Virus record (IMG/VR): IMGVR_UViG_2547132277_000001
Source: a virus
Taxonomy: Duplodnaviria > Heunggongvirae > Uroviricota > Caudoviricetes
Reading direction: 5' to 3' (one strand)
DNA: 27,860 bases
Numbering within the stretch: position 1 is the first letter of the stretch; each line of letters starts with the position of its first letter. The notes under the pieces were generated by a model. It had not been told where the DNA came from, searched no databases, and was given only the letters and a program-made list of their open reading frames with translations. Shown piece by piece: positions 11,017-27,860 of the stretch. Both the position numbers and the translations under genes were made by a program.

Positions 11017-11149
11017 CAAACGCCGCCGGAGCTGAAACTCGCTTTCAGGTCTGGCGGGGTTGAACAACGAGCTACGCGAGGCGTTAGCCGGTCATAGCGT
11101 CGCAAATACTTCAACCGTCTGCTGGTTAAATAATTCGAGGTTTTTGGAC

Positions 11150-11344: not shown

Positions 11345-11360
11345 GAGGAACTATATAAAT

Positions 11361-11462
11361 ATGTTATCTCTCGTTTATGAAAATCCGTGGACGACGATTT
11401 TTCTGATGATTGTTGCCAGCATGTGCCTCAACAGTGTTATTGGCGCATTGCGCGGCCATTAA
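11361..11462 (+). CDS. 33-aa hydrophobic peptide (predicted single TM helix)
   Basis: Strong RBS AAGAGGA 11 nt upstream of ATG. MLSLVYENPWTTIFLMIVASMCLNSVIGALRGH. Followed within 20 nt by a canonical terminator. Confidence 0.35.
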   Translation: MLSLVYENPWTTIFLMIVASMCLNSVIGALRGH

Positions 11463-11480
11463 TCGCGACAAAACCAGACT

Positions 11481-11511
11481 AAAACCGGCACCCTGAATGC
11501 CGGTTTTTTTA
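11481..11511 (+). terminator. rho-independent terminator
   Basis: ACCGGCA-CCCTGAA-TGCCGGT stem-loop followed by TTTTTTT. Confidence 0.7.
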
Positions 11512-11670
11512 TGCCATTTTTCCGCGAATTTCCCGTTTTTTAGTCGTGCATGCATCAGGTGCATGGTTTTGCATGCGTCAGTCTTGCCCGTTCTGTCCGT
11601 GCGCCGCCAGAGCTAGCGCGGATCCAGAGTTGTCATGCAACTGCATTAAAACCGCCCCATAAAGCGGGCA

Positions 11671-11689
11671 GGCGTGGCGGGGAAAGCAT
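11671..11689. other. phage cos site (19-nt cohesive-end sequence of the P2/186 family)
   Basis: GGCGTGGCGGGGAAAGCAT closely matches the P2 cohesive end GGCGAGGCGGGGAAAGCAC as I remember it. It lies between the early/replication block and the portal-terminase genes, where cos sits in P2-type prophages. Confidence 0.7.
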
Positions 11690-11908
11690 TGCGCGCCAGC
11701 AGTGATGCGTAATAATAAAAATTATCCTCTGAGCGCGTCGTGATGGCGCTGTCGTGGTCGCTGCTGGTTCGTTGGTGGTCGAGTGTGTTCGTGCGCGTGA
11801 GACGCATCTGATGCGTGATGGTGGTGTGCATGGAAAAGCCACCAGGAGCAGCGGCTTTACAGGAGTGGCAGGATTCAAACTGCTAATTATGTTTCTACTA
11901 TGATTAAA

Positions 11909-12913
11909 CTAATTTACATGTATGTAGAGTTCACCGTCGCCAGACCAATCGGGACACTCTAAAACAAGCCCAAACTGCTTGAATATTTCATCAATGATTA
12001 TTGTTATCTCCCGAAAATCACCAAAACCTGTAATGTGCTGGTCATTAAACTTCCCATAAAGATTCTGAAAAGCAATGCCTAATTCTGATAATTGATATCT
12101 TATCTTTGAGTTGGATAGTGTAAGGGATAGCTTTGGATCGTATTCTTTAATATTGATGTTTAGAGAATGGACATAACCCATCGCATAAGCATAAGAGTTG
12201 ATGATTAGCCTGATACGTTTTTTTACTTCAAGATACATGTCATTCAGAGAAAGATTACCGTACTTATAACCCCAGATGAGTTTTTCAATCTCGTCAGATA
12301 CTTCATTTACAACAGTGTCAAGATTCTCTAAAAATAAATCGATAGTTTCTTGAGGGGCAGACCCCGAAGACATGTAATTAGCGAGATATTCAGACCATGC
12401 ACGCGTGGCTGAGATAAGAAGCGCGCTACCATACTCGTTGACTGTAAAGTTTTGGGCTAAGCATGTTAGTAAGTTTTTTCATGTACGTGCACTAATTCAT
12501 GGTGAATGCGATGGATGACTGCGAGGTATCCTTCTTCTTTCAGTTTTAAGAAGCTACCATCATTGAAAAGCTCAACAAAAAAAATCAATCGATAGCACAA
12601 GGGTATATTCTTCATATAGCCCATCATTGCCAATTTTTGTTACTAACTGCCCGACGGCTGCGCCCTGTTTGCTATTGGTAAATGAACTAGGGGATTTGTG
12701 TTGGTAAGAGGATGTTACCTTTTGAAGAGCTTCACTGAAGTTATAGGAAACAATCACGCATTTTAATTTGGAGATATCAAGATTGAGATTCTTTGTTAAA
12801 GCTCGGATAGCTTCTAGTGTGAAATTACCGATATTATTTGCTTCTTGCTCAGTAGCGAAACCTTCGAGGGTTATTTTAAAATCAGTTTCCAAAATATTAA
12901 TCTCCGCGCCCAT
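11909..12913 (-). pseudogene. AT-rich cargo gene of unknown function, apparently one ~325-aa ORF interrupted by two frameshifts at homopolymer tracts
   Basis: Minus-strand ORFs 12913-12572 and 12373-11909 are in the same frame. The 198-bp gap between them is open in the -1 frame (FFVELFNDGSFLKLKEEGYLAVIHRIHHELVHVHEKTY) and then again in the original frame (KNLLTCLAQNFTVNEYGSALLISATRAWSEYLANYM-). The frame switches coincide with a T8 run (plus 12577-12584) and an A6 run (plus 12474-12479). Confidence 0.5.
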
Positions 12914-12990
12914 TGTTTTGATATTCGATGCACTATAGCTTTCGCAGATTGCATCTTCAATAATGAGCGCAGAGATTGTGGCGGCCTAAG

Positions 12991-14038: not shown

Positions 14039-15808
14039 TTAGTTGAACTCCAGAATAGATTTAGGCTGCATGCCGCTACCGGCAGAAAGCGGTTCGTTTA
14101 ACAGGGCGTGCATGGTCGCCCATGCGATATCGGCGTGGCTGGCTTCCTCGGTGCGGCTGGCCTCATAGGTGGCGCAGCGCCCGCTGCTGGTCATGGTTTT
14201 GCGGATGGACATAAACGACTGCGTGACGTCGGTTGCTCCGGCGTCGTACTCCAGACAGCCACGGCGAATGGTGTCTTTCGCCTTGAGTACCATTGCGGTT
14301 TTCATTTCAGGTGTGTAACGGATGCCGCGTGCCGCCGGGTAAAATGAGCGCACCAGCTGGAACACGCCGAGACCGAGGCCGGTTGCGTCAATGCCGATGT
14401 ATTCGACGTTGTATTTCTCGGTCAGCTTGCGGATGCCCTCTGCCTGTGCTGCAAAATCCATGCCCTTCCACTGGTGGCGCTCCAGCATGCGGAACTTGCC
14501 ACCAGAGACCACCGGCGGCGCGAGCACGACGCACCCGGCACTGTCGCCGGTGTGTGACGGGTCGTAGCCAATCCAGACAGGACGAGAGCCGAACGGATGG
14601 TCGGCGAACGGGGCAAAGTCCTCCCATTCCTCCATCACATCGACCATGCAGCGCTGCAGCTCCTCGAACGGGAATACCGACGCTTTATCGTCGACAAACT
14701 CGCACATAAACAGGTTCTTAAAGTCCTCATCACTGTTTTCGCGTTTGAGCTGGTCGAGGTCGAACAGGGTGCAGCCACCCGCAAGGGCGTCCTCAATGGT
14801 GACAATCTGCCGCCACTGGCCATCGTCGCAGAGCTGGCCACCGGCGAGCGCGCTGTGACTGATGTCGATTTCGATGCGGTCGGCAATCCGGCTGCGCCCC
14901 TTGTTGAACAGCTCGCCAGACCAGAAGGGGTAAGCGCCGTGCGCCAGCGTGGAAGGTGTTGAAAAATAGGTCGAGCGCAGGTGCTTTTGCGAGGCCATGC
15001 CCGAGGCGACTTTGCGCAGTTTCTGAAAATTCGGGATCCAGAATATTTCATCGACATACAGATCGCCGTTATGGCTCTGCGCGGTGTTGGAATTGGTACC
15101 GAGAAAAATCAGTTTTGCGCCGTTGTTACCGATGACAATCGGGTCGCCAGTCAGGTCAACGTCGACCAGTCGCGCAAACTGGATGATGTATTCGCGGAAC
15201 ACGTAAGCCTGCGTTTTACTGGCTGATAAAAATATCTGGTTATGGCCGGTTTTGAGTGCGCGCAGCAGTGCCTCGCGGGAGAAATAGAATGTCGCGCCAA
15301 TCTGGCGGGATTTGAGAATGTCACGAATACGGTGCTCCAGTCCTGCGCGGTACCACTGCAACTGGTACTCGAAAGACTGGTCGAAAAATAATTCCTCTAG
15401 TTTATCGATAGCCTCGTCGCTGAAAAAATTCTTTTTCGGCTTTTTGCGCTCCCCTTTGTTGCGGTTGGCGACGTTGGGGTTAAGGTCGGCTTCGTTGCCG
15501 GTCTGGCTGTAGCGGTTGACTCGCGCCAACCGTTCAATCTGCCGTCCGAGTAGGTCAATCTCTTTGAAATCACCCCCTGTCTTTTGCGGCTTGGCGATGA
15601 GCTGAATCAGCCTGGCCTCAAGGCTGCTTTCAACGCGGGAAATCGGCGCGATGCCGTCCCAGCCGTCGCGCTGCTTCCAGCTCTGCACGGTCGGGCGCTT
15701 GACCTGCAGCATTTCGGCAATCTGTGGCACGGAAAAACCCTGCCAGTAAAGCAGCGATGCCTGCCGTCGCGGGTCATGCAACAAGGTTGTATCGGTGGAA
15801 TTGGTCAT
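14039..15808 (-). CDS. P: terminase large (ATPase) subunit (P2 gpP family)
   Basis: 589-aa ORF with N-terminal HTH-like region (GFSVPQIAEMLQVKRPTVQSWKQRDGW) and terminase ATPase/nuclease body. Divergent from the O-N-M-L operon as in P2. Confidence 0.9.
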   Translation of the reverse strand: MTNSTDTTLLHDPRRQASLLYWQGFSVPQIAEMLQVKRPTVQSWKQRDGWDGIAPISRVESSLEARLIQLIAKPQKTGGDFKEIDLLGRQIERLARVNRYSQTGNEADLNPNVANRNKGERKKPKKNFFSDEAIDKLEELFFDQSFEYQLQWYRAGLEHRIRDILKSRQIGATFYFSREALLRALKTGHNQIFLSASKTQAYVFREYIIQFARLVDVDLTGDPIVIGNNGAKLIFLGTNSNTAQSHNGDLYVDEIFWIPNFQKLRKVASGMASQKHLRSTYFSTPSTLAHGAYPFWSGELFNKGRSRIADRIEIDISHSALAGGQLCDDGQWRQIVTIEDALAGGCTLFDLDQLKRENSDEDFKNLFMCEFVDDKASVFPFEELQRCMVDVMEEWEDFAPFADHPFGSRPVWIGYDPSHTGDSAGCVVLAPPVVSGGKFRMLERHQWKGMDFAAQAEGIRKLTEKYNVEYIGIDATGLGLGVFQLVRSFYPAARGIRYTPEMKTAMVLKAKDTIRRGCLEYDAGATDVTQSFMSIRKTMTSSGRCATYEASRTEEASHADIAWATMHALLNEPLSAGSGMQPKSILEFN

Positions 15809-15973
15809 TGATGCCTCGCCGTAGTGGATTCAGGGCAAGGCTACTTAATGGCCGTCAGTGATTCGCTAAGGTGCTGTTGTGTGGGCGGTTGTCCAGTCGT
15901 CATTGGTGGTCTGGCGTGTCCTGAGTCTGGAAACTGGCGGTGACCAGTAACCTCAACCTCAGGACTCCTGACA

Positions 15974-16828
15974 ATGGCAAAAAAAGTCTCAAAATTCTTT
16001 CGCATCGGCGTCGAGGGTGACACCTGCGACGGCCGCATTATCAGCGGCAACGATATTCAGGAAATGGCCGAATCGTTTGACCCTCGCGTCTACGGTTGCC
16101 GCATTAACCTTGAGCATATTCGCGGTCTCTTTCCTGATGGCGACTTCAAACGCTTAGGCGATGTGGTTGAACTGAAAGCTGAAATAATTGACGACGATTC
16201 TGCGCTTAACGGCAAATGGGCGTTGTTCGCCAGAATCACCCCAACCGACGACCTGATTGCGATGAATAAAAAATTGCAGAAGGTCTACACCTCAATGGAA
16301 ATTCAGCCGAATTTTGCCAATACCGGCAAATGCTACCTCGTCGGCCTTGCTGTCACCGATGACCCGGCGAGCCTCGGCACTGAATACCTCGAATTCTGCC
16401 GCAACGCGAAGCACAACCCTCTGCAGCGCTTTAAGGCCAACCCTGAAAACGTCTTTTCCGCTGCCACGCTGGCCGAACTGGAATTTGAAGACGTTCCCGA
16501 TACGGTGCTAAACAGCCTGGCAGATAAGGTGAAAGCCATTTTCAGCCGTAAGCAGGTCAGCGACGATGCGCGCCTGAATGATGTGCATGAAGCGGTGACC
16601 ACCGTCAGCGAGCATGTGCAGACCAACCTCACTGCGCAGGATAAGCGTCTTTCCGCTATGGAAGCCGCGCTTACCACCTTTAAACAGGAACTGACCGGCA
16701 AGATTGAAGAAACCAGCCAGGCATTTTCCGCCCTGAAAGCCACCCTCGACAAAACCGAAAGTTTCAGCCAGCCGCGACGCACGAAAGCCAGCGGCGGTGG
16801 TGGCGATGAGCTGCTGACCGACTGCTGA
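15974..16828 (+). CDS. O: capsid scaffolding protein (P2 gpO)
   Basis: MAKKVSKFFRIGVEGDTCDGRIISGNDIQEMAESFDPRVYGCRINLEHIRG... is near-identical by eye to P2 gpO. Confidence 0.9.
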   Translation: MAKKVSKFFRIGVEGDTCDGRIISGNDIQEMAESFDPRVYGCRINLEHIRGLFPDGDFKRLGDVVELKAEIIDDDSALNGKWALFARITPTDDLIAMNKKLQKVYTSMEIQPNFANTGKCYLVGLAVTDDPASLGTEYLEFCRNAKHNPLQRFKANPENVFSAATLAELEFEDVPDTVLNSLADKVKAIFSRKQVSDDARLNDVHEAVTTVSEHVQTNLTAQDKRLSAMEAALTTFKQELTGKIEETSQAFSALKATLDKTESFSQPRRTKASGGGGDELLTDC

Positions 16829-16904
16829 TAAACCGCAGACCAGAAACCGGGCGGTAACTCCGCCCGATGCAGTGACTAACCGATAAATTCAAACAGGAAA
16901 TACT

Positions 16905-17972
16905 ATGCGCCCGGAAACCCGTTTTAAGTTCAATGCCTATCTGACCCGCGTCGCTGAGCTGAACGGCATCAGCACTGATGACGTCAGTAAAAAATTCACC
17001 GTCGAGCCGTCCGTCACGCAAACGCTGATGAACAAAGTGCAGGAGTCATCCGCGTTTCTGCAGACGATTAACATTCTGCCGGTCGCAGAAATGAAGGGTG
17101 AGAAAATCGGCGTCGGTGTGACCGGTACTATCGCCAGCACGACCGACACCTCGGGCGATGATGAGCGTAAGACCGCAGACTTCACCGCGCTTGAGTCCAA
17201 CAAGTACGAGTGCGACCAGATTAACTTTGACTTCCATCTGAAATATAAAACCCTCGACCTGTGGGCGCGTTTTCAGGACTTTCAGCGCCGCATCCGTGAC
17301 ACCATTGTTAAGCGTCAGGCGCTCGATTTCATCATGGCCGGTTTTAACGGTACCACCCGCGCCGCCACCTCTGACCGCACCAAAAATCCGATGCTGCAGG
17401 ATGTAGCCATCGGCTGGCTGCAGAAATACCGCAACGAAGCCCCGACGCGTGTGATGAGCAATATCACCGATGCTGACGGTAAGGTCGTTTCGGCAGTGAT
17501 TCGCGTCGGTAAAAACGGCGACTATGAGAACCTCGACGCGCTGGTGATGGATGCTACCAACAACCTGATTGACGAGGTTTATCAGGATGACCCGAAACTC
17601 GTTGCCATCGTTGGCCGTAAGCTGCTGGCCGACAAATATTTCCCACTGGTGAACAAGCCGCAAGAAAACAGCGAAGCGCTCGCGGCAGATATCATCATCA
17701 GCCAGAAGCGAATCGGCAACCTGCCTGCTGTGCGTGTGCCGTACTTCCCGGCGAATGCCGTGTTAGTGACAACGCTGGAAAACCTCTCTATCTATTTCAT
17801 GGATGAGAGCCACCGCCGCAGCATTGATGAAAACCCGAAAAAAGACCGCGTGGAAAACTACGAGTCAATGAATATCGACTATGTGGTCGAGGCGTATGCC
17901 GCCGGGTGTCTGCTGGAAAACATCACCCTGGGCGATTTCACCGCACCTGCAGCACCGGAAAGCGGAGAGTAA
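16905..17972 (+). CDS. N: major capsid protein (P2 gpN)
   Basis: 355-aa ORF following O, with the P2 N-family size and position. Confidence 0.88.
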   Translation: MRPETRFKFNAYLTRVAELNGISTDDVSKKFTVEPSVTQTLMNKVQESSAFLQTINILPVAEMKGEKIGVGVTGTIASTTDTSGDDERKTADFTALESNKYECDQINFDFHLKYKTLDLWARFQDFQRRIRDTIVKRQALDFIMAGFNGTTRAATSDRTKNPMLQDVAIGWLQKYRNEAPTRVMSNITDADGKVVSAVIRVGKNGDYENLDALVMDATNNLIDEVYQDDPKLVAIVGRKLLADKYFPLVNKPQENSEALAADIIISQKRIGNLPAVRVPYFPANAVLVTTLENLSIYFMDESHRRSIDENPKKDRVENYESMNIDYVVEAYAAGCLLENITLGDFTAPAAPESGE

Positions 17973-17976
17973 GCCC

Positions 17977-18726
17977 ATGACGAGCCCCGCACAGCGTCAC
18001 ATGATGCGGGTCTCGGCCTCTCAAGCCGCGCAGCGGGAACAAGCCCCGCTGCGCCATGCAACCGCCTACGAGCAGATGCTGGTAAAGCTGGCCGATGACC
18101 GCCGCACGTTGAAAACCATCCGTTCAAACGAACTGAAAGCCGCGAAAAAGCGTGAGCTGCTGCCGTTCTATGCGCCGTGGGTCGCCGGTGTGCTGGCTGA
18201 TGGCCGTGGTGCGCAGGATGACATTCTGATGACAGTCATGCTGTGGCGTCTCGATGCCGGTGATATCGCTGGCGCACTGGAAATTGCGCCATACGCGCTG
18301 AAGCACGGCCTCACCTCTGACTATCGCCGCACGACACCTTACATGCTGGTTGAGGAGGTGGCGCTTGCCGCGCTGCGCCTGCGCGATGCCGGTGAGCCTG
18401 TCGACCTCGCATTACTGCTGACCACCCTTAGCCTGACCGACGGCGCTGACGTTCCCGATATGGTGCGCGCTCGACTGCATAAGGTGACCGGTCTAACCCT
18501 GCGCGATGCCGGTCAGAGCGCCGAAGCACTGGCACAGTTTCAGCGCGCGATGCAGCTCGACCGCAATGCCGGTGTGCGCAAAGAGATTGAGCGACTGGAG
18601 CGGGCATTGAAGCCTAAGCCCGATGCCGCGCCCCGTAAAACGACTAAACCGCGCACGCGCAAACCTGCCACCAAACCGGCGGCAAAGCGCGGGCGTCCAC
18701 CAAAGGCGGTAAAAACCGCCGGTTAA
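17977..18726 (+). CDS. M: terminase small/endonuclease subunit (P2 gpM)
   Basis: GGAGAG RBS then ATG 17977. MTSPAQRHMMRVSASQAAQREQAPLRHATAYEQMLVKLADD... matches P2 gpM. The ORF track begins this frame earlier at 17881. Confidence 0.88.
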   Translation: MTSPAQRHMMRVSASQAAQREQAPLRHATAYEQMLVKLADDRRTLKTIRSNELKAAKKRELLPFYAPWVAGVLADGRGAQDDILMTVMLWRLDAGDIAGALEIAPYALKHGLTSDYRRTTPYMLVEEVALAALRLRDAGEPVDLALLLTTLSLTDGADVPDMVRARLHKVTGLTLRDAGQSAEALAQFQRAMQLDRNAGVRKEIERLERALKPKPDAAPRKTTKPRTRKPATKPAAKRGRPPKAVKTAG

Positions 18727-18819
18727 CTGAACGCTCCCCGAGCCGGGCGGCACGCCGGTCAAAGCGGGTTTTGACCCTGACGGCGACCGGCGTCCACCGC
18801 CCAACCTAATGAGGTTGTC

Positions 18820-19329
18820 ATGACGACAGTAATACTGAATCAGCCCGACGAACCGCAGGACGTACCGGGCGTGGTGATTCCCGCACCGGAGACGGGCGAC
18901 GCAGTGATTAAAAACACGTTCTTTTTCCCTGATGTGGATCCGAAGCGGGTGCGCGAGCTGATGCGCCTTGAGCAGACGGTTTCCGATGCGCGCCTGCGCA
19001 ACGCCATCAAGACCGGCATGGCGGAAACCAATGCGGAGCTTTACGACTACCGGCTGCGCCAGATTGCCGCAGGGTTTAAGACACTGGCCGACGTGCCTGA
19101 CGCCGAGGAAATCGACGGCGAGAATGTGCGCGTTTTCCACTACCTCAGCGCCGTGACGGCGATGGCGACCGCCACCCTGTATGAGCGTTATCGCGGGGTT
19201 GAGGCCACCGGCAAGGGTGACAAAAAAGCCGACAGCGTCGAAACCACCATTGATGACCTGTGGCGAGATATGCGCTGGTCGGTCTCGCGCCTGCAGGATA
19301 AGCCGCGCTGTATCGTGGGTCAGCTCTGA
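18820..19329 (+). CDS. L: head completion/stabilisation protein (P2 gpL)
   Basis: ...VIKNTFFFPDVDPKRVRELMRLEQTV... matches the P2 gpL pattern. Confidence 0.88.
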   Translation: MTTVILNQPDEPQDVPGVVIPAPETGDAVIKNTFFFPDVDPKRVRELMRLEQTVSDARLRNAIKTGMAETNAELYDYRLRQIAAGFKTLADVPDAEEIDGENVRVFHYLSAVTAMATATLYERYRGVEATGKGDKKADSVETTIDDLWRDMRWSVSRLQDKPRCIVGQL

Positions 19330-19532
19330 TGAAAGTCTACGCGATGCAGGGCGACACCATCGACGCGCTTTGCGCCCGGTATTACGGGCGCACTGAGGGC
19401 GTGGTCGAGGCGGTGCTGCAGGCTAATCCCGGTCTGTCTGAGCTGGGCGTCATTCTGCCGCATGGCATGGCAATTGACCTGCCCGACGTGGCATCGTCAC
19501 CCGTAACAGAAACTATCAACCTTTGGGAGTAA
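19329..19532 (+). CDS. X: tail protein X (P2 gpX)
   Basis: 67-aa ORF MKVYAMQGDTIDALCARYYGRTEGVVEAVLQANPGL... at the conserved position after L. Confidence 0.8.
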   Translation: MKVYAMQGDTIDALCARYYGRTEGVVEAVLQANPGLSELGVILPHGMAIDLPDVASSPVTETINLWE

Positions 19533-19535
19533 ACC

Positions 19536-19832
19536 ATGACAGAAGGGGAAAAAGGCGTCCTGTCACTGTTTGTGATTGGCGTGATGATTGTTGTCGGAAA
19601 AGTGCTGGCGGGTGGTGAGCCCATTACCCCGCGCCTGTTTATCGGCCGCATGCTGCTCGGCGGTTTTGTTTCAATGGTCGCCGGTGTTGTTCTGGTGCAG
19701 TTTCCAGATATGTCACTGCCTGCCGTTTGTGGGATTGGATCCATGCTCGGCATTGCAGGTTATCAGGTGGTGGAAATCGCCATTCAGCGCCGCTTTAAGT
19801 CACAAAAGGGGGATAGCGATGCCGGTCATTAA
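19536..19832 (+). CDS. Y: holin (P2 gpY)
   Basis: 98-aa protein with hydrophobic helices (LSLFVIGVMIVVGKVLAGG..., LLGGFVSMVAGVVLV...) and a charged C-terminus. Confidence 0.8.
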   Translation: MTEGEKGVLSLFVIGVMIVVGKVLAGGEPITPRLFIGRMLLGGFVSMVAGVVLVQFPDMSLPAVCGIGSMLGIAGYQVVEIAIQRRFKSQKGDSDAGH

Positions 19833-20316
19833 TACTCACCAGAATATCGCCGCGTTTCTGGACATGCTGGCCTATTCCGAAGGGACGGCGACGCATCCGC
19901 TGACGAAAAATCGTGGTTACGACGTCATTGTCACTGGCATTGATGGCAAGCCGGAAATTTTCACCGACTACACCGACCACCCTTTCGCACATGGCAGACC
20001 AGCGAAAGTGTTTAATCGACGCGGCGAAAAATCCACGGCATCAGGGCGTTACCAGCAGCATTATCTCTACTGGCCGCACTATCAGAAACAGCTCGCATTG
20101 CCTGATTTCAGCCCGTTGTCGCAGGACAAACTTGCGATTCAGTTAATCCGGGAGCGCGGTGCCATTGAGGATATTAAAGCGGGGCGTATTGAGCGAGCAA
20201 TTTCACGTTGCCGCAATATATGGGCGTCGCTGCCGGGTGCAGGTTACGGCCAGCGTGAGCACAGCCTCGACAAACTGGTCACTGTGTGGCGCACGGCTGG
20301 CGGGGTGATGGCATGA
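19819..20316 (+). CDS. K: endolysin/lysozyme (P2 gpK)
   Basis: MPVINTHQNIAAFLDMLAYSEGTATHPLTKNRGYDVIVTG... is a phage lysozyme N-terminal signature. Start overlaps the holin end. The ORF track merges it with an upstream out-of-context extension. Confidence 0.85.
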   Translation: MPVINTHQNIAAFLDMLAYSEGTATHPLTKNRGYDVIVTGIDGKPEIFTDYTDHPFAHGRPAKVFNRRGEKSTASGRYQQHYLYWPHYQKQLALPDFSPLSQDKLAIQLIRERGAIEDIKAGRIERAISRCRNIWASLPGAGYGQREHSLDKLVTVWRTAGGVMA

Positions 20317-20726
20317 AAATCCTGATAACGCTGCTGGTGCTGGCCGTGCTCGGGCTGCTGTGGTTGCGCCATGAGAACGGCAATTTATCCCGCTCCTTTG
20401 AGACGGCAAACCGCGTCGCAAGCGAACAAAAGACGACGATTGGCATGCTGAAAAATCAGCTCAGTGTTGCCGGTCAGCTTGCCCGACGTAATGAATCCGC
20501 GCAGGTGGAACTGCGCGAACAGCTCGCAAAGGCCAGCGCAGAGGCCAGCCGCCGTGAGCAGACGATAACGAGGTTACTTAATGAAAATGAAGCCTTTCGC
20601 CGCTGGTATAACGCTGCTTTGCCTGATGTTGTGCGTCGGCTGCACACCCGCACCGCCTGCGCCAGTGCCGGTGATTGTGGTCAGCGGATGCCCGAGGGTG
20701 AGCCTTTGTCCGATGCCGGGAAGTGA
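20313..20726 (+). CDS. lysB: i-spanin (Rz / P2 LysB-like)
   Basis: N-terminal TM helix (ILITLLVLAVLGLLWL) followed by a predicted coiled-coil region. ATG overlaps the K stop (ATGA). Confidence 0.7.
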   Translation: MKILITLLVLAVLGLLWLRHENGNLSRSFETANRVASEQKTTIGMLKNQLSVAGQLARRNESAQVELREQLAKASAEASRREQTITRLLNENEAFRRWYNAALPDVVRRLHTRTACASAGDCGQRMPEGEPLSDAGK

Positions 20727-20871
20727 CCCGAAAACCAATGGTGACCTGAGCGCAGATATCCGCCGTCTTGAGGGCGCGCTGACCGCCTGCGCGCTGCAGG
20801 TTAAAACCGTCAAACACTGTCAGGATGAACTCGATGCAGAAGCACAAAAGCCTGCGCAAAGCGCTGATTAA
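20581..20871 (+). CDS. lysC: o-spanin lipoprotein (Rz1 / P2 LysC-like), overlapping lysB in another frame
   Basis: Lipobox LCVGC and a proline-rich mature region (TPAPPAPVPV), in the typical embedded/overlapping arrangement. Confidence 0.6.
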   Translation: MKMKPFAAGITLLCLMLCVGCTPAPPAPVPVIVVSGCPRVSLCPMPGSDPKTNGDLSADIRRLEGALTACALQVKTVKHCQDELDAEAQKPAQSAD

Positions 20872-21301
20872 CGCCGTGCCGCAGCTCCGAAATAATCCCG
20901 ATATGCTGCGCCTTTTTGCCGACAACGGCCATACCGATTCCCGACTGGCGAGCTCGCTGTCGTTTGAAAAGGTGTACGTGCTTAACGTGGTGGTGACCGA
21001 CTTCACCGGTGACCTTGATTTGATATTCGTGCCGGTGCAGGCGTGGCTGCGTGAACATCAGCCGGACATTATGACCACCGACGACGGGCGGGAAAAAGGA
21101 TTCACCTGGATTATTGATATCAATAACGACGATTCGCTCGATATCAGTATCAGCCTGAGGCTCACCGAGCGCACGCTCGTCAAAGAGGTCGACGGCGCGC
21201 TGCACGTCAGCTATGCCCCTGAGCAGCCACTGCCTGAGCCGGTGACGCGCCCGGTCGAGCTGTACGTTAACGGCGAACTGGTGAGTAAGTGGGATGAGTG
21301 A
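20825..21301 (+). CDS. R: tail completion protein (P2 gpR)
   Basis: ...NPDMLRLFADNG...LSFEKVYVLNVVVTDFTGDLDLIFVPVQAWLREHQPDIMTTDDG...PVELYVNGELVSKWDE matches P2 gpR closely. Confidence 0.88.
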   Translation: MNSMQKHKSLRKALINAVPQLRNNPDMLRLFADNGHTDSRLASSLSFEKVYVLNVVVTDFTGDLDLIFVPVQAWLREHQPDIMTTDDGREKGFTWIIDINNDDSLDISISLRLTERTLVKEVDGALHVSYAPEQPLPEPVTRPVELYVNGELVSKWDE

Positions 21302-21749
21302 ATTAACCGCGCTGCAGGAACGCCTTGCCGGTCTGATTGCCAGCCTGTCACCGGCGGCACGTCGGCAAATGGCGGTTGAGGTTGCGAAAAAGCTGCGTAC
21401 CAGTCAGCAACAGCGTATCAAGCGCCAGCAGGCACCCGACGGCACCCCGTATGCGGCACGAAAGCGCCAGCCGGTGCGGAGCAAGAAAGGTCGGATTAAA
21501 CGTGAAATGTTCGCCAAACTGCGCACCAGTCGCTTTATGAAAGCCAAAGGCAGCGACAGTGCGGCGGTGGTGGAGTTTACCGGCAAGGTGCAGCGCATGG
21601 CGCGGGTGCATCAGTACGGCCTAAAAGACCGGCCAAACCGCAACAGCCGGGATGTGCAGTACGAGGCGCGACCGTTGCTCGGATACTCTTCATCAGACTT
21701 ACAAAAAGTTGAGAGTTTAATTATGGATGCTTTATGTCAACGCCATTGA
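21294..21749 (+). CDS. S: tail completion/virion morphogenesis protein (P2 gpS)
   Basis: 151-aa ORF overlapping the R stop, at the conserved position. Confidence 0.8.
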   Translation: MSELTALQERLAGLIASLSPAARRQMAVEVAKKLRTSQQQRIKRQQAPDGTPYAARKRQPVRSKKGRIKREMFAKLRTSRFMKAKGSDSAAVVEFTGKVQRMARVHQYGLKDRPNRNSRDVQYEARPLLGYSSSDLQKVESLIMDALCQRH

Positions 21750-21839
21750 CTTTGGATTCGCTGAGAATTATTATATAACTCAGCGATAGAGGTGGACTGG
21801 TGTCTAGGTGGGCGTGCCCACTGAGTTGGGTTCGATTCC

Positions 21840-22676
21840 CTAACCTCGTATTATTCCTCTCGATATTTTTATTGCTGGGTTTTCCTTTCTTATTTCATTT
21901 TTAATTTGCTCATCACAAATTAAATAATCTATGTTTTTTGCTTTAACAAGTTCTTTAACGCTAATGTTAATTGAATTTAATAGATTTGCATTCCGCATGT
22001 TAGCCCCTTCATAAGTAACGGATTTAAAATCACATCCTTTTAATATGCAGCTTTTCATTTCGCTATCTGTAAAATACCCCCCTTCAAAACTGCAGTTTTC
22101 GAAAGTGACATTTTGAAAACATGTATTAAATGCCTTAATATTTCTTAGCTTGCAGTTTTTGAATTTAACACTCTTAACTCTATTGCCTGTAATATTTAGA
22201 GCTTGAATTGTGCAATTATCGAAAGAACAATCTCTAATGTATGATTCGCTCATATTCAAGCCGGTTAAGTCAGCGTCTTTAAAATGTAAATATTTGATAG
22301 TGGACATTTTATCAAGTTCAATCCTTGGAACTTGAATGTTATATATTCCTTTAGCATTTAACTGACGTATGATTTTTATCTTCATAATATTCAGTTCTGC
22401 AGAAGAATGCTTTGCCAGATTTTCAAGATCTTCAATTAGTTCGTGAATAGCATCTTTATTTTGCCTTTTATTTTCAAAATAGTAAAGAATCACACCCAAA
22501 ACAAGAAAGTCTAAAATTGAAGAATTTGCATTAACAAGAAAATTCTCCATGAATTTTGAGTTGTAGTTATCATTATAAACAGACAACCCTACTATAAGCC
22601 CGGAGTATAAAAAAAAGATACCTATAATATATTTCATATTGCTTATTGTACGCCTAAAAGATGAAGTTCTTTTCAT
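21840..22676 (-). CDS. membrane-anchored pentapeptide-repeat protein (AT-rich cargo gene between S and V)
   Basis: Two predicted TM helices (YIIGIFFLYSGLIVGLSVY, ILDFLVLGVILYYF) then about 20 tandem pentapeptide repeats (CSFDN CTIQA LNITG ... VTFEN CSFEG ... ANMRN ANLLN). Markedly AT-rich compared with neighbours. Start chosen at ATG 22676; ATG 22637 is an alternative. Confidence 0.7.
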   Translation of the reverse strand: MKRTSSFRRTISNMKYIIGIFFLYSGLIVGLSVYNDNYNSKFMENFLVNANSSILDFLVLGVILYYFENKRQNKDAIHELIEDLENLAKHSSAELNIMKIKIIRQLNAKGIYNIQVPRIELDKMSTIKYLHFKDADLTGLNMSESYIRDCSFDNCTIQALNITGNRVKSVKFKNCKLRNIKAFNTCFQNVTFENCSFEGGYFTDSEMKSCILKGCDFKSVTYEGANMRNANLLNSINISVKELVKAKNIDYLICDEQIKNEIRKENPAIKISRGIIRG

Positions 22677-22813
22677 TACTACCTGCCATATGTTTTGTGT
22701 GATTTTCGAATGAGTCAACACTCAAATGATACATGAATGCACACCGAATTGTGTAGAAGAGCATACAGCTGAATCGTTTTGCTCTTGGCTTTAACAATCG
22801 GCATTCTTTGTTC

Positions 22814-23449
22814 ATGAACACATTAAACACCATTCAAGAGTTAGCACGTGCCATTCGCAACCTCATCCGCTCAGGCGTGGTGACTGAGGTCGATACTGTG
22901 CAGGGGCTGTGCCGCGTACAAAGCGGCGGGATCCAGACTACATGGCTGAACTGGCTGACCACCCGCGCCGGTCGTTCGCGGACGTGGTGGGCTCCCTCGG
23001 TCGGTGAGCAGGTTCTGCTGCTGGCAATCGGTGGCGAGCTTGATACCGCTTTCGTGCTGCCGGGTATTTTCTCCGACGATAACCCCGCCCCGTCTGCCTC
23101 GGCGGATGCGTGGCATGTGGCTTTCCCTGATGGTGCGGTCATTGAGTACGAGCCCGAAACCGGCGCGCTGACGGTCAGCGGCATAAAAACGGCCGACGTG
23201 ACGGCATCGGAGTCCATCACCGCAACCGTACCGCTGGTACTGGTGAAAGCCTCGACCAGTATCACCCTCGACACCCCGGAGGTGATTTGCACCAATAAGC
23301 TAACGACGGCGACGCTTGAGGTGCAGAAAGGCGGCAAGATGAGCGGCAATATCGAACATACCGGCGGGTCACTGTCGTCTAATGGCAAGGTACTCCACAC
23401 CCATAAACACCCGGGCGACAGCGGCGGGCAAACGGGGGCACCGTTATGA
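22814..23449 (+). CDS. V: baseplate spike/assembly protein (P2 gpV)
   Basis: MNTLNTIQELARAIRNLIRSGVVTEVD...GKVLHTHKHPGDSGGQTGAPL is near-identical in pattern to P2 gpV. Confidence 0.9.
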   Translation: MNTLNTIQELARAIRNLIRSGVVTEVDTVQGLCRVQSGGIQTTWLNWLTTRAGRSRTWWAPSVGEQVLLLAIGGELDTAFVLPGIFSDDNPAPSASADAWHVAFPDGAVIEYEPETGALTVSGIKTADVTASESITATVPLVLVKASTSITLDTPEVICTNKLTTATLEVQKGGKMSGNIEHTGGSLSSNGKVLHTHKHPGDSGGQTGAPL

Positions 23450-23793
23450 CGGCGCGCTATCAGGGGATGAACCGAAATACCGGCCTTGGCATCAGCGATA
23501 CCGAGCATATCAGCCAGAGCATGCGCGATATTCTGCTGACGCCGGTCGGCTCGCGGGTGATGCGTCGTGAATATGGCTCGCTTCTGTCGGCGCTGATTGA
23601 TATGCCGCAAAACCCGGCGCTCAGGCTGCAAATTATGGTGGCGTGCTATTCGGCTATCCAGAAGTGGGAACCGCGCATCAGGCTTACATCCATCAGCTTT
23701 GAGGCCGGCGACGCTGGCGAGATGTATGTCGATATTACCGGGATGCGTACCGATACCGGTGCGTCAGTTTCAACCACTGTTTCACTGAGTTAA
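23446..23793 (+). CDS. W: baseplate wedge protein (P2 gpW, gp25-like)
   Basis: 115-aa ORF with start overlapping the V stop, at the conserved position. Confidence 0.85.
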   Translation: MTARYQGMNRNTGLGISDTEHISQSMRDILLTPVGSRVMRREYGSLLSALIDMPQNPALRLQIMVACYSAIQKWEPRIRLTSISFEAGDAGEMYVDITGMRTDTGASVSTTVSLS

Positions 23794-23799
23794 ATAACT

Positions 23800-24708
23800 A
23801 TGGCAACCGTTGACCTGAGTCAGTTACCCGTTCCCGATGTGGTTGAGGAACTGGACTATGAAACCATCCTTGCGGAACGCAAAGCGACGCTGATATCGCT
23901 CTATCCAGAAGACCAGCAGGAGGCCATTGCCCGGACGCTCACACTTGAGTCAGAGCCGGTTGTTAAGCTGCTGCAGGAAAACGCCTACCGTGAAGTTATC
24001 TGGCGTCAGCGGGTGAACGAAGCCGCGCAGGCGGTGACGCTGGCCTACTCCGCCGGTAACGACCTCGACGTCGTAGCCGGGAACAATAATACCGAACGCC
24101 TGACCATCACCCCGGCGGATGATACCACCATCCCGCCGACACCTGCCGTTATGGAATCTGATACCGACCTGCGACTGCGCACGCAACAGGCGTTTGAGGG
24201 ATTGAGCGTGGCGGGTCCGGTCGGTGCATATGAGTATCACGGCCGCAGCGCCGACGGGCGGGTCGCTGACGTTTCGGTCGCCAGCCCGTCGCCAGCCTGC
24301 GTGACGATTACCGTGCTATCGCGTGAGGGGGACGGCACTGCCAGCCCTGAGCTACTGGCGATTGTTGATAAAGCGCTGAACGCCGAAGATGTGCGCCCGG
24401 TAGCTGACCGGGTGACCGTCCAGTCAGCCGAGATTGTGCCGTACCAGATTGACGCGACGATCTATGTTTACCCCGGCCCCGAATCTGAACCCATCAGGCA
24501 GGCGTCAGAGCAGAAGCTGCAGAGCTACATCAGCGCGCAGCACCGCCTCGGGCGTGATATCCGTCTGTCAGCCATTTATGCGGCGCTGCATGTTGAGGGG
24601 GTGCAGCGTGTCGAGCTGACATCACCGCAGGCCGACATAGTGCTGAGTAAGTCGCAGGCGTCGAACTGTACCGAGTACCAGATAACTATCGGGGGCTCGG
24701 ATGAATGA
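23800..24708 (+). CDS. J: baseplate assembly protein J (P2 gpJ)
   Basis: 302-aa ORF at the conserved position and size. Confidence 0.88.
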   Translation: MATVDLSQLPVPDVVEELDYETILAERKATLISLYPEDQQEAIARTLTLESEPVVKLLQENAYREVIWRQRVNEAAQAVTLAYSAGNDLDVVAGNNNTERLTITPADDTTIPPTPAVMESDTDLRLRTQQAFEGLSVAGPVGAYEYHGRSADGRVADVSVASPSPACVTITVLSREGDGTASPELLAIVDKALNAEDVRPVADRVTVQSAEIVPYQIDATIYVYPGPESEPIRQASEQKLQSYISAQHRLGRDIRLSAIYAALHVEGVQRVELTSPQADIVLSKSQASNCTEYQITIGGSDE

Positions 24709-25309
24709 CCGGCTATTACCCGTTGGCTCGTCGCCGCTGGAGGTCGCCGCCGCCGCTGCGTTCTCTGAGATTCAGCGCGTGCCGGTACCGCTGCGCACCC
24801 TGTGGAACTGGCGCACCTGCCCGGTAAAGCTGCTGCCGTATCTGGCGTGGGCGCTGTCGGTCGACAGGTGGGATGAGAAATGGCCGGAGGCGACAAAGCG
24901 CAGCGTCTGCGCGTCCTCGTTTTTCGTCCATCAGCACAAAGGCACCATCAGCGCATTGCGTCGGGTCGTCGAGCCGCTCGGCTTTCTGATTGAGGTGCGC
25001 GAGTGGTGGCAACTCGACGAGGAGCCAGGCACATTCCGCCTCGTTGTTGGCGTCCTCGACAGCGGCATCACTGACGAAATGTATCAGGAGCTTGAGCGCC
25101 TGATTGAAGACGCCAAACCGGCAAGTCGCCACCTGACCGGGCTGGCTATCAGTCTGAGCTCGACCGGCGAACTGTATGTCGGCGCGGGATGCTATCACGG
25201 CGACGCGCTGACTGTTTACCCCTACACCCCCGAGGAGATTGTCGTCGGCGGTGAATATTACCCGGCCTCGGCCATCCATTTGATTGATAATCTGAGAGTG
25301 AACGCATGA
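24701..25309 (+). CDS. I: baseplate/tail protein I (P2 gpI)
   Basis: MNDRLLPVGSSPLEVAAAAAF... at the conserved position, overlapping the J stop. Confidence 0.85.
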   Translation: MNDRLLPVGSSPLEVAAAAAFSEIQRVPVPLRTLWNWRTCPVKLLPYLAWALSVDRWDEKWPEATKRSVCASSFFVHQHKGTISALRRVVEPLGFLIEVREWWQLDEEPGTFRLVVGVLDSGITDEMYQELERLIEDAKPASRHLTGLAISLSSTGELYVGAGCYHGDALTVYPYTPEEIVVGGEYYPASAIHLIDNLRVNA

Positions 25310-26262
25310 CCGCAAAATATTTTGCCATTCTGACCAATCAGGGCGCGGCGCGGCTGGCGAACGCGGCGGCACTCGGTACCAAACTCAACCTGACGCAGAT
25401 GGCCGTCGGTGATGCGAATGGTACGTTGCCGACCCCTGACCCGGCGCAGACGAAGCTCATTAACCAGAAACGCATCGCGCCGCTGAACCTGCTGACCGTT
25501 GACCCGGCCAATACCAGTCAGATTATCGCGGAACAGATTATTCCCGAGAATGAAGGTGGTTTCTGGATCCGCGAGATTGGTCTCTATGACGATGATGGTA
25601 TTCTGATTGCCGTGGCGAACTGTCCGGAGACCTACAAGCCACAACTGCAGGAGGGAAGCGGTCGCACGCAGACCATTCGCATGATTCTGATTGTGTCGAG
25701 CACATCGGCAATCACCCTGAAAATCGACCCGGCAGTCGTGCTGGCAACGCGCCAGTATGTCGACGACAAGATTATCGAGGTGAAAGGATATGCTGATGAC
25801 CTGATGAAAAAACATGTTGAGGCCGCCAATCCACACAAGCAGTACCCGTTAATCGCTAATGCTCTGAAAGAAATGGTTGACGCGGGACTGGCCGGCGACG
25901 TTCTTAAAAACCTTGGTTTGGGGGAATTGGCTCTGGCTGGCGCAACAACCGGCGCTATGTTGGTGAATGGGTATGTAGCAATTCCATTAATTATTTCTGG
26001 CGTTCGGAGACCACTTATTATCCAGTGGGGAGTGGGGCAGTTTGGGGGAAGTCTGGGGGATGATGCGGGATATTTAAACAATTTCCCTTTCGCTTTTCCG
26101 TCGGCGTGCTACGTGATGGTTGCCAGCCACGTGGGGCATACACCTTCGGGTGCCGGAATACTATCTGCTTCCGCAATCACAAAAAGCGGCTTTCGTGGTT
26201 TTTCCAGCGTAGCGACTGCCGCAAATCCTGTATCGGGCTGTTATGTTGCTATAGGAGGGTGA
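25306..26262 (+). CDS. H: tail fibre protein: P2 gpH-like constant N-terminus plus variable C-terminal domain (orientation-dependent)
   Basis: N-terminal ~160 aa (…MAVGDANGTLPTP…GGFWIREIGLYDDDGILIAVAN…YKPQLQEGSG…) resemble P2 H. The C-terminal part lies beyond the crossover motif at 25902-25927. Confidence 0.85.
   Translation: MTAKYFAILTNQGAARLANAAALGTKLNLTQMAVGDANGTLPTPDPAQTKLINQKRIAPLNLLTVDPANTSQIIAEQIIPENEGGFWIREIGLYDDDGILIAVANCPETYKPQLQEGSGRTQTIRMILIVSSTSAITLKIDPAVVLATRQYVDDKIIEVKGYADDLMKKHVEAANPHKQYPLIANALKEMVDAGLAGDVLKNLGLGELALAGATTGAMLVNGYVAIPLIISGVRRPLIIQWGVGQFGGSLGDDAGYLNNFPFAFPSACYVMVASHVGHTPSGAGILSASAITKSGFRGFSSVATAANPVSGCYVAIGG
25773..25923 (+). repeat. left inverted repeat of the tail-fibre invertible region (151 bp, identical to the reverse complement of 27710-27860)
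   Basis: Direct comparison: plus 25773-25923 equals the reverse complement of 27710-27860. Identity ends at 25923/27710 and is truncated only by the window edge on the other side. Confidence 0.9.
25902..25927. other. hix/gix/cix-like recombination site (serine DNA-invertase crossover site), left copy
   Basis: TTCTTAAAAACC-TT-GGTTTGGGGGAA resembles the Hin hixL site TTCTTGAAAACC-AA-GGTTTTTGATAA as I remember it (11/12 in the left half-site). It sits exactly where sequence identity between the two fibre cassettes ends. Confidence 0.6.
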
Positions 26263-26263
26263 C

Positions 26264-26698
26264 GTGTTTTTTAGTCCATCTTTAAATATTTTTGTGAATC
26301 CTGCGCTTAAGGATGACTACATCAATGTAAATTCATGGCCAGATGATGCTGTTGAAGTTGATGAGCAGGTGTATATTGAGTTTTCCGGATTACCGCCGAA
26401 AGGAAAAATCCGTATCGCTGGGGAAAATGGTTTTCCTGCATGGTCTGAAATTCCACCACCAACGCATGAGGAACAGATTGCCGCAGCCGAATTGAAAAAA
26501 CAGCAATTGATTAATCAGTCCAACGAATATATGAATACCAAGCAATGGCCTGGTAAAGCGGCTATTGGTCGTCTGAAAGGTGAGGAACTGGCGCAATATA
26601 ATTTGTGGCTGGATTATCTGGACGCACTGGAACTGGTTGATACCTCCAGTGCTCCAGATATTGAATGGCCTACGCCTCCGGCAGTTCAGGCCAGATGA
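26264..26698 (+). CDS. tail fibre assembly chaperone (Tfa / gpG-like) for the plus-orientation fibre
   Basis: 144-aa ORF immediately after the fibre C-terminus. AGGAGGG RBS with a GTG start at 26264. Converges tail-to-tail with a second Tfa gene on the minus strand. Confidence 0.65.
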   Translation: MFFSPSLNIFVNPALKDDYINVNSWPDDAVEVDEQVYIEFSGLPPKGKIRIAGENGFPAWSEIPPPTHEEQIAAAELKKQQLINQSNEYMNTKQWPGKAAIGRLKGEELAQYNLWLDYLDALELVDTSSAPDIEWPTPPAVQAR

Positions 26699-27263
26699 CA
26701 TCCGGCGCGGTGCTCGTATCTGTTGCCGTCACCGCGTCAATGTAATCAAGCACGGCGTTAAGCCGGGTGGTTTCTGCCTGCGTCAGCTTCCGCCCGGCCT
26801 GTAATTTCAGCTGAATCAGACTGATGGAAGCCATTGCAGCATCAATCAGTGACTGGCGCTGTGCTTCTGCCGCTTCTACTGCGGCACCGTGTTGTGCCTC
26901 AGTATCTGTCACCCATTTCTCACCATCCCATTTATCATATGGCGTTAACGGTGAAAGCGTGACATAACCGTTTTTGATGGCACCGATATAATCCACTGTA
27001 ACAGCAGCACCATTTTCGATTGAGTAAACAGTCTCATTGCGATGGTCTTCTTCATGGCTCCATCCCTTACCTGTAAATACTGCCACTCTTCCCGGAATGT
27101 TTTCGCCAGGGTCAATACCAGTGGAACAGGCGGGCATACTTACGCCAGTATTAATATATTCATCAGACCAGCCCGTATACTCAGATGTTTCAGCATCATA
27201 ATAAAAACAACGCATATCGCCCGGCACTGTAGCCAGCCCATTTTCATCAAAAAAAGGTTTCAT
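26670..27263 (-). CDS. alternative tail fibre assembly chaperone (Tfa')
   Basis: 197-aa ORF with GAGGG RBS. Its ATG overlaps the stop of the upstream minus-strand fibre C-terminal cassette (TAATG). Its C-terminal region (AVLDYIDAVTATDTSTAPDVIWPELPEA) parallels the plus-strand Tfa C-terminus (DYLDALELVDTSSAPDIEWPTPPA). Confidence 0.7.
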   Translation of the reverse strand: MKPFFDENGLATVPGDMRCFYYDAETSEYTGWSDEYINTGVSMPACSTGIDPGENIPGRVAVFTGKGWSHEEDHRNETVYSIENGAAVTVDYIGAIKNGYVTLSPLTPYDKWDGEKWVTDTEAQHGAAVEAAEAQRQSLIDAAMASISLIQLKLQAGRKLTQAETTRLNAVLDYIDAVTATDTSTAPDVIWPELPEA

Positions 27264-27860
27264 TATTTAGCCCTCACCAGAAAGTTAAATGCAATATTTC
27301 GAGGTCTGACAGCAACAAAACTCACACCATCACCCACAGAGTTACTGGTGAAATTAAATCGTGAAAATCCTGGCTGATTTCCGGCGATGCCATCATGAAA
27401 GTTAATTGCGTGTCCCGCACCTCCGCCTATATTCCCGGCAAACTGAGAAAAGTTTGTAGCTTCCTGCCAGCTTAATAATTCGCGACCACCATCTGCACCT
27501 CGCCCGTCATCCCAGATACGAATGAAATCACCGCGGGCTTCAGGTAATACCAGTGAAGGAAACACTTTCGCCAGCACAGGGTAATCAGAGGCAGAAAATT
27601 TCGCCCCGTTGAACTTCAAAAACACCATACTGGACCAGCTGTCGATTACAGTATTTGGCATTGCAGCGGACGGCCAGAAGAACGGAACACCAATAGCTGG
27701 AGCACCTTCTCCCAAACCAAGGTTTTTAAGAACGTCGCCGGCCAGTCCCGCGTCAACCATTTCTTTCAGAGCATTAGCGATTAACGGGTACTGCTTGTGT
27801 GGATTGGCGGCCTCAACATGTTTTTTCATCAGGTCATCAGCATATCCTTTCACCTCGATA
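27263..27860 (-). CDS. alternative tail fibre variable C-terminal cassette (Hv'), 5' end beyond the window
   Basis: The minus-strand ORF begins with the same 49 residues (KGYADDLMKKHVEAANPHKQYPLIANALKEMVDAGLAGDVLKNLGLGE) encoded by H at 25783-25929, then diverges into a different C-terminal domain. Confidence 0.75.
   Translation of the reverse strand, partial: IEVKGYADDLMKKHVEAANPHKQYPLIANALKEMVDAGLAGDVLKNLGLGEGAPAIGVPFFWPSAAMPNTVIDSWSSMVFLKFNGAKFSASDYPVLAKVFPSLVLPEARGDFIRIWDDGRGADGGRELLSWQEATNFSQFAGNIGGGAGHAINFHDGIAGNQPGFSRFNFTSNSVGDGVSFVAVRPRNIAFNFLVRAK
27710..27860 (-). repeat. right inverted repeat of the tail-fibre invertible region (runs to the window edge)
   Basis: Reverse complement of 27710-27860 is identical to 25773-25923. 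It contains the second hix-like motif at about 27706-27731. Confidence 0.9.

Follow-up and report, generated by a model that had tools for sequence, protein, structure and literature searches.

The window analysed here, a stretch of 27,860 nt, runs from the E. coli chromosome (aroF to yfiB) into a P2-like prophage, with a tail-fibre region at its end. In this region the fibre gene H is followed by tfa and then, on the opposite strand, by tfa' and Hv'. The features are as follows:

25306 to 26262, plus strand: H, tail fibre, the form expressed here (A form), 318 aa, from the ORF and Pfam
25773 to 25922 and 27711 to 27860, no strand: left and right arms of a perfect inverted repeat of 150 nt
25901 to 25926, no strand: left crossover site, 26-bp Din-type, TTCTTAAAAACC TT GGTTTGGGGGAA
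26264 to 26698, plus strand: tfa, tail-fibre assembly chaperone for Hv, 144 aa, Caudo_TAP, E = 3e-35
26670 to 27263, minus strand: tfa', chaperone of the alternative cassette, 197 aa, Caudo_TAP, E = 5e-27
27263 to 27706, minus strand: Hv', silent alternative C-terminal cassette, about 146 aa past the switch point, from the ORF
27707 to 27732, no strand: right crossover site as it stands in the window, 26-bp Din-type, TTCTCCCAAACC AA GGTTTTTAAGAA
27721 to 27860, minus strand: inverted copy of the H constant sequence 25773-25912, extending the Hv' frame in frame to the window edge

A Pfam search of H revealed Phage_tail_fib over residues 1-150 (E = 9e-63) and Gp53-like_C over residues 237-317, and an NCBIfam scan of H and Hv' returned no named family. 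The gene divides into a constant part (~25306-25926, residues 1 to about 208) and a variable part, Hv (~25927-26262). An identical copy of the A-form protein is found in 48 public contigs. The tfa and tfa' genes are convergent and overlap by 29 bp. The Hv' ORF continues past the window edge on the minus strand; in E1535, a relative with the flipped orientation, Hv' is the C-terminus of a 354-aa fibre, as it is in a flipped-form protein cluster of 44 members drawn from many contigs. Both fusions are in frame (...NLGLGE/LALAG... and ...NLGLGE/GAPAIG...), and two Caudo_TAP genes are present. The ORFs and domain matches thus agree with the first-pass annotation, which had described a constant H N-terminus followed by a variable C-terminus and a Tfa chaperone, with an alternative Hv'-Tfa' pair encoded on the opposite strand.

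The two crossover sites are inverted with matching cores, TT on the left and AA (TT inverted) on the right, and each agrees with 18-19 of 20 consensus positions. For the left site the match is 18/20, with no such site in 50 shuffles, and its TT core (25913-25914) falls within codon 203 of H. The AAACCNNGGTTT pattern occurs at these two places only, and a site search of the fibre region disclosed no further crossover site. Weak site-like 26-mers are located far off, at 3662-3687 and 4277-4302. Both crossover sites match those of the e14 P segment as well as the inversion repeat published for e14, TTGGTTTGGGAGAAGG (PMC12529663).

Comparison of the two ends of the segment disclosed inverted arms at 25773-25938 and 27695-27860 (166 nt, 96% identity, far beyond chance). 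It had been claimed that perfect 151-bp repeats bound the cassettes, that their identity stops at a motif resembling Hin/Gin/Cin sites, and that they extend about 129 bp beyond the crossover site to the window edge. A perfect repeat is indeed present in the given sequence, although at 150 nt rather than 151; its identity ends inside the two 26-bp sites, and the right arm ends at 27860. The repeat reaches 128 nt past the left site, or 140 nt past its central dinucleotide, but this outer part was found in none of nine closely related prophage loci. Because the window edge cuts the right arm, the true length of the repeat cannot be read from this sequence.

To evaluate the segment in both orientations, we compared related prophages. 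The prophage of N21 is also present in E1535 (99.95% identity), but with a 1,814-bp segment in the inverse orientation. The breakpoints of this inversion lie within the site cores, and the half-sites are swapped exactly as expected; in E1535 the exchange point maps inside the left site of the window (25901-25926). N21 and E1535 share the same dead invertase, and flipping in trans is therefore implied. A draft contig 99.99% identical, L012, contains the flipped junction and ends at the switch. The right end of the window is identical to the final 171 nt of L012 and to the H/Hv' junction of flipped E1535. A 29-mer spanning the flipped junction had one match in genome contigs, a Pseudocitrobacter prophage with the normal single-copy layout, and no match in metagenome contigs. 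In viral contigs it was found in four, with differing downstream cassettes, and none of the four had the two-junction arrangement of the window.

From its half-site sequences, the right site of the window is the recombinant junction of the flipped orientation: the inner half is the normal Hv' half-site, but positions 27721-27732, on the outer side, have the sequence that belongs on the outer side of the left site. Seven same-orientation relatives checked at this position read ...AAACC AA CCTTTTAGAAAA or ...AA CGTTTAAGAAAA, and the version found in the window occurs in flipped E1535, at the H/Hv' junction. At its two sites the window thus shows different states: on the left the junction of one orientation, and on the right the H/Hv' junction that belongs to the opposite one.

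Relatives in the same orientation illustrate what normally lies to the right of this site. L005 is 100.000% identical to the window over 15306-27720 (12.4 kb), beyond which it runs on through invertase-side DNA into the sheath gene. In seven of eight same-orientation relatives (L001, L003-L008) homology to the window ends at 27720-27725, the site core; in the eighth, L009, the match ends earlier, at 27277. None of these eight has an inverted H copy right of the site. Among 5,426 complete E. coli genomes, none aligns at a single place to more than 95% of 25000-27860, none extends the match beyond the right site in this orientation, and none has one junction of each orientation; the right-end junction was found in E1535 only, as a plain flip. 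Neither version, 198 aa or 196 aa, of the protein truncated at the window edge had an exact match in a public gene index.

A tblastn search with PinE detected no serine recombinase gene in the window, in agreement with the earlier statement that the invertase lies elsewhere. In the relatives a Gin/Pin-like gene, intact or internally deleted, adjoins the segment directly on its right, before the sheath gene. L006 and L008, which belong to the class of relatives with an identical H protein, have an intact 188-aa Resolvase+HTH_7 protein right of the site. This protein matches Mu Gin (PDB 3uj3) over residues 1-184 (E = 1e-92) and is 87% identical to PinE; an NCBIfam scan of it gave matches below the cut-off only. 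L001, L002, and L005 carry an internally deleted copy, and that of L009 is annotated as a frameshifted pseudogene. The deleted copies retain the first ~200 nt of the gene. In the Gin, Cin, and Hin systems, the 5' part of the invertase gene holds the Fis-dependent recombinational enhancer, which acts in cis and would here fall outside the window. With two Din sites, an adjoining invertase gene (intact or not) in relatives and both orientations in nature, the proposed likeness to the Mu G and P1 C segments is supported.

These data point to a classical Din-family fibre switch of a P2-like E. coli prophage, in which the long repeat is most likely a chimeric contig end; we place the probability of this reading at about 0.78. 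It draws on the anatomy, the sites, the two orientations found in nature, and the missing outer repeat in relatives, all of which are observed. A serine invertase, encoded outside the window and in relatives directly right of the segment, would pair the sites at 25901-25926 and ~27707-27732. Strand exchange at the central TT/AA dinucleotide would then flip the 1.8-kb segment, replacing Hv and tfa (318-aa fibre) with Hv' and tfa' (354-aa fibre) behind the constant H N-terminus. The flip would change the receptor-binding tip of the fibre and could thereby alter host range. Since the invertase is internally deleted in the relative identical to the window, flipping there would rely on a resident Pin-type invertase acting in trans, as may also be the case in the strain sequenced here.

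The repeat itself could have arisen during assembly. From a culture containing both orientations, an assembler may join one junction of each at a contig end; the window holds one junction of each orientation and stops there, so a chimeric contig end is the most likely source. It is thus probable that no single molecule carries positions 27721-27860 joined to the remainder of the window. The last 151-mer that still holds an Hv'-specific base is 27710-27860, and the window ends with it, an end point that would fit a word or read length of 151. An origin of the repeat length in SPAdes with k = 127 was rejected, because the length fits 151 and not 127. The start of the window within single-copy aroF and its unrounded length are consistent with an arbitrary cut on the left and a contig end, presumably 27860, on the right. 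Against a chimera, a majority-rule assembler should keep one orientation at both junctions; a chimera would thus need roughly balanced orientations or a path-resolution error.

Alternatively, the inverted H copy could be real if the right site of this prophage had been joined, by a Din invertase or by homologous recombination, to the left site of another P2-like prophage that lies in the opposite orientation and shares its H constant region. The result would be a large chromosomal inversion, and the DNA right of 27720 would be the H-I-J side of the other prophage. Many E. coli genomes do carry several related fibre modules, at up to eight places per genome, and all relatives examined share the same 128 nt outside the site, which makes perfect identity no objection to a second copy. 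Left of the right site, prophages of the L005 and L008 types are 99.98-100% identical to the window; right of it, the two types are about 70-77% identical to each other or unalignable, the change falling at the site core. This pattern shows exchange between prophages at or beside this site, and the mosaic boundary hints at the kind of between-prophage event that is required. However, constant sequence on both sides of the segment was found in none of the 5,426 complete E. coli genomes, and a window end within 140 nt of the junction would be a coincidence. Furthermore, Din invertases normally act only when a single supercoiled domain carries the enhancer and the two sites in cis, as in the Hin and Gin invertasomes. 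We consider such a joining improbable, and its narrower form, an invertase-mediated exchange with the left site in another P2-like prophage of the chromosome, slightly more so. If true, Din-type fibre switches would, in addition, be a source of large chromosomal inversions and of mosaic prophages bounded exactly at crossover sites.

It is very improbable that the switch truly includes the long repeat, with arms of at least 150 nt allowing RecA-dependent as well as site-specific inversion. In favour are the perfect match over 150 nt seen in the given sequence and the long repeats (0.6 kb) of the phage P1 C segment; the latter, however, lie inside the invertible segment and not beyond the crossover sites. 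The outer 128 nt are lacking at the right site in all eight same-orientation relatives, including the one identical over 12.4 kb, and in all complete E. coli genomes searched, and a second constant copy would leave no space for the invertase promoter region present in relatives. The earlier suggestion that the element may also invert by homologous recombination is therefore not upheld.

Multi-segment shufflons, such as Min of p15B and that of R64, have three or more crossover sites and several invertible segments. A multi-segment shufflon had also been suggested. Such a locus (Min/p15B-like, or like the three-repeat P2-like locus of EPEC), with more cassettes right of the window, is the least probable reading: multi-repeat versions do exist in other P2-like E. 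coli prophages (PMC4272514), but the fibre region has just two good sites, and in relatives 98.3 to 100% identical over 22793-27720 the right site is followed at once by the invertase gene and the sheath gene, with no cassette between, which largely refutes it.

The closest known counterpart of the window's switch is the e14 P segment with PinE (stfP-tfaP-tfaE-stfE-pinE). Both have the same gene order, convergent tfa genes with a 29 bp overlap, and a 1.8-kb segment. Their sites are near-identical, sharing the inner arm given above and an outer right half-site of the TTTTCxTAAACG type, and the tfa/tfa' junction is 88% identical in DNA to that of tfaP/tfaE. In contrast to the e14 remnant, the switch described here belongs to an apparently complete P2-like prophage, behind the baseplate genes V-W-J-I, and its fibre is fused to a P2-type H N-terminus (Phage_tail_fib). 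Hv and Hv' show for the most part no sequence relationship to stfP and stfE, and, unlike in e14, the invertase is internally deleted in the relative identical to the window. Flipping of the e14 segment by PinQ and PinR has been shown.

The Mu G/Gin and P1 C/Cin systems likewise have a constant fibre part and two C-termini, each with its own assembly gene, along with 26-bp sites, a 2-bp core, and an adjoining serine invertase (here in the relatives). They differ in segment length (3 kb, compared with 1.8 kb in the window), in their fibre cassettes, and in the P2-like backbone of the present prophage. The long repeats of P1 lie inside the segment, whereas that of the window lies outside and is probably not real. 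In the P2-like prophages of EPEC E2348/69, tail-fibre inversion switches were detected by read mapping and PCR, one a simple two-variant switch and one with three repeats (Goldberg et al. 2014, PMC4272514). By description, the switch in the window is like these in kind; the cassettes may differ.

Fibre inversion of the Gin/Cin/Pin type is textbook knowledge and already known in P2-like E. coli prophages, and the switch in the window is not new in kind. Where a long perfect inverted repeat reaches a sequence end beside a recombination site, it should be taken to indicate mixed orientations in the sample rather than be assigned to the element. Should the window indeed end in a chimera, the repeat would be indirect evidence of flipping in the culture that was sequenced. 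Although the invertase of the closest relatives is dead, both orientations occur among them, and it therefore appears that other resident Pin-type invertases flip such orphan segments.

The window begins inside the single-copy gene aroF, passes through yfiL-yfiR-dgcN-yfiB into a P2-like prophage and closes on the switch region, which forms its final 2.1 kb. Judged against complete E. coli genomes with annotation, the prophage genes follow the order integrase, repressor, replication gene, portal and terminase, capsid, lysis, baseplate V-W-J-I and the tail fibre gene H. The open reading frames and their domains agree with the first-pass annotation, which had described H and Tfa together with an opposite-strand Hv'-Tfa' pair (Hv and Hv', expressed and silent C-terminal cassettes).

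Features of the switch region
25306-26262, H, tail fibre gene, 318 aa, Phage_tail_fib and Gp53-like_C domains
tfa, chaperone gene, 144 aa, Caudo_TAP domain
tfa', chaperone gene of the silent cassette, opposite strand, 197 aa, Caudo_TAP domain
27263-27706, Hv', silent cassette, continuing past the window end
25901-25926, left crossover site, TTCTTAAAAACC TT GGTTTGGGGGAA, Hin/Gin/Cin/Pin layout
27707-27732, right crossover site, TTCTCCCAAACC AA GGTTTTTAAGAA, Hin/Gin/Cin/Pin layout

A repeat search of the window returned inverted arms at 25773-25938 and 27695-27860 (166 nt, 96% identity). The perfect repeat noted earlier is present, with a length on direct comparison of 150 nt (25773-25922 versus 27711-27860, the right arm being truncated by the window edge); the reported 151 counts the first mismatch. 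Identity stops within the two 26-bp sites, as expected from the hix-like crossover sites proposed at this point. Across the whole window the pattern AAACCNNGGTTT matched these two sites only, and no other place matched a two-half-site consensus strongly; 50 shuffles gave no such match. Two further 26-mers (3662-3687 and 4277-4302) resemble Din-family sites at 15-16 of 20 consensus positions, with ~0.1 expected by chance; one lies at the yfiB/prophage boundary and the other, with a perfect half-site GGTTTTGGAGAA, within the integrase gene. These could be quasi-sites or chance matches.

The exact H protein occurs on 48 public contigs, and the fibre of the flipped form (354 aa) belongs to a 44-sequence cluster found on many contigs. 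The Hv' DNA is 92-98% identical to side tail fibre tips of the lambdoid phages mEp213 and mEp043 and of O157:H7 prophages, implying that the same receptor-binding tip is common to unrelated phage backbones.

We compared nine related prophage loci: six with an identical H protein (L003-L008), N21 (L001) and 52F4 (L009), all oriented as the window, and E1535 (L002), which is flipped. One and the same prophage is present in N21 and E1535: both flanks are 99.95-99.97% identical, and a 1,814-bp segment is inverted between the two. The N21 sites are TTCTTAAAAACC-TT-GGTTTGGGGGAA and TTTTCTAAAAGG-TT-GGTTTGGGAGAA, and those of E1535 are TTCTTAAAAACC-TT-GGTTTGGGAGAA and TTTTCTAAAAGG-TT-GGTTTGGGGGAA, exactly the half-site swap predicted for a crossover at the central dinucleotide. 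This pair supplies both orientations of the proposed switch.

A search of the window found no serine recombinase, as the first-pass annotation had stated in pointing rightwards for the invertase. In all nine loci, Hv' is followed there by a short spacer, a serine recombinase gene and the tail sheath gene. L006 and L008 have an intact recombinase (188 aa, Resolvase and HTH_7 domains), which matches Mu Gin (PDB 3uj3) at E=1e-92 and shares 87% identity with PinE of the cryptic K-12 prophage e14. Other copies are defective: in L009 the gene is annotated as a frameshifted pseudogene, and in L001 (8788-8987), L002 (5735-5934) and L005 (12482-12724) an internal deletion removed approximately codons 68-178, leaving ~200 nt of the 5' end. 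The enhancers of gin, hin and cin lie in the 5' part of the gene, the part kept in these deleted copies.

L001 and L003-L008 stay homologous to the window as far as the right site core (27720-27725), and L009 only as far as 27277. L005 is 100.000% identical over 15306-27720 (12,415 nt), and L006 and L008 show 1-2 base differences up to 27725. The right-end bases beyond these points find no match in any of the eight same-orientation relatives except, in reverse, in the H constant region. The right site of the window is therefore hybrid, with the Hv' half-site on the inside and the outer half of the left site on the outside. Exactly this H|Hv' junction belongs to the flipped form: E1535 has the identical sequence, as do the last 171 nt of a 23,990-bp draft contig (L012). 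Only with a duplicated H constant region could one molecule carry H|Hv from one orientation together with H|Hv' from the other. None of 5,426 complete E. coli genomes had a place covering >95% of 25000-27860, and the right-end junction occurred in E1535 only, as a simple flip.

Draft assemblies break at the switch locus: L012 stops ~20 nt beyond the flipped junction, and two other partial flipped-form proteins are encoded at contig ends (contigs of 24-26 kb). The window itself ends with the last 151-mer (27710-27860) still holding an Hv'-specific base, and beyond 27860 an assembler would meet only words used before, as reverse complements. Such an end would fit graph-based or greedy assembly with words or reads of 151 nt, and a contig end at 27860 is also consistent with the unrounded length of the window and with its left cut, placed arbitrarily in aroF. 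Taken together, these observations indicate that the repeat's outer 128-140 nt most likely arose where a contig from a culture with both orientations ended in a chimera, so that the repeat described as extending ~129 bp outside the site, an outer arm missing from the relatives, is most likely an assembly artefact.

Much less probably, the inverted duplication is real, for example through exchange of this right site with the left-hand one in a second P2-like prophage. Prophages of the L005 type and of the L008 type each match the window at 99.98-100% identity over the 12.4 kb leading to its right site. L005 (12400-12830) and L008 (12400-13200) diverge from each other exactly at the central dinucleotide (window 27719-27720): identity is 77% across the next ~290 nt (invertase alleles) and 69% in the sheath region, and the tail modules differ (tape measure of 814 versus 1025 aa). 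A mosaic boundary thus falls exactly on a crossover site, which hints at such exchange; however, the window would have to stop by chance right after the junction, and the arrangement is without counterpart in the complete genomes. Two earlier suggestions are contradicted, a multi-segment shufflon by the site scan (two sites) and the relatives, and inversion through long homologous arms by the absence of such arms from the relatives.

Elsewhere in the prophage, the variable region from the replication gene to the portal gene (11000-12950), the usual P2 accessory-gene hotspot, differs from that of 52F4, where an nSTAND1 NTPase sits; its small minus-strand ORFs (154 and 113 aa) had no PADLOC or NCBIfam match. 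A low-GC (30%) insert between tail genes S and V (21840-22721, minus strand) encodes a 293-aa protein with pentapeptide repeats, a possibly membrane-associated N-terminus (weak SLATT-like match) and a weak resemblance, below cut-off, to the Hailong effector HalA. The gene could serve defence or exclusion from within the prophage; some relatives carry variants of it, and L003 has none.

In its working the system resembles the Din-family fibre switches Mu G/Gin, P1 C/Cin and e14 P/Pin, and the criteria tested place it among them, in line with the Mu G and P1 C architecture first recognised. The e14 P region (stfP-tfaP-tfaE-stfE-pinE) has the same layout and sites, and the e14 repeat as published (PMC12529663) is the inner arm TTGGTTTGGGAGAAGG. 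Simple and multi-repeat fibre-gene inversion switches have been described in P2-like E. coli prophages by read mapping and PCR (PMC4272514). The switch is real and of an already known kind; only its seemingly unusual feature, the long repeat, is most likely artefactual. N21 and E1535 share an identical deleted invertase copy with an additional 1-nt frameshift, and their flank alignment is gapless. By parsimony, at least one flip would have followed the death of the invertase gene, through an invertase acting in trans; a dead-invertase prophage found in both orientations implies flipping by another resident invertase. Such action in trans is established for this invertase family; the e14 segment is inverted by PinE, PinQ and PinR alike (PMC12529663).
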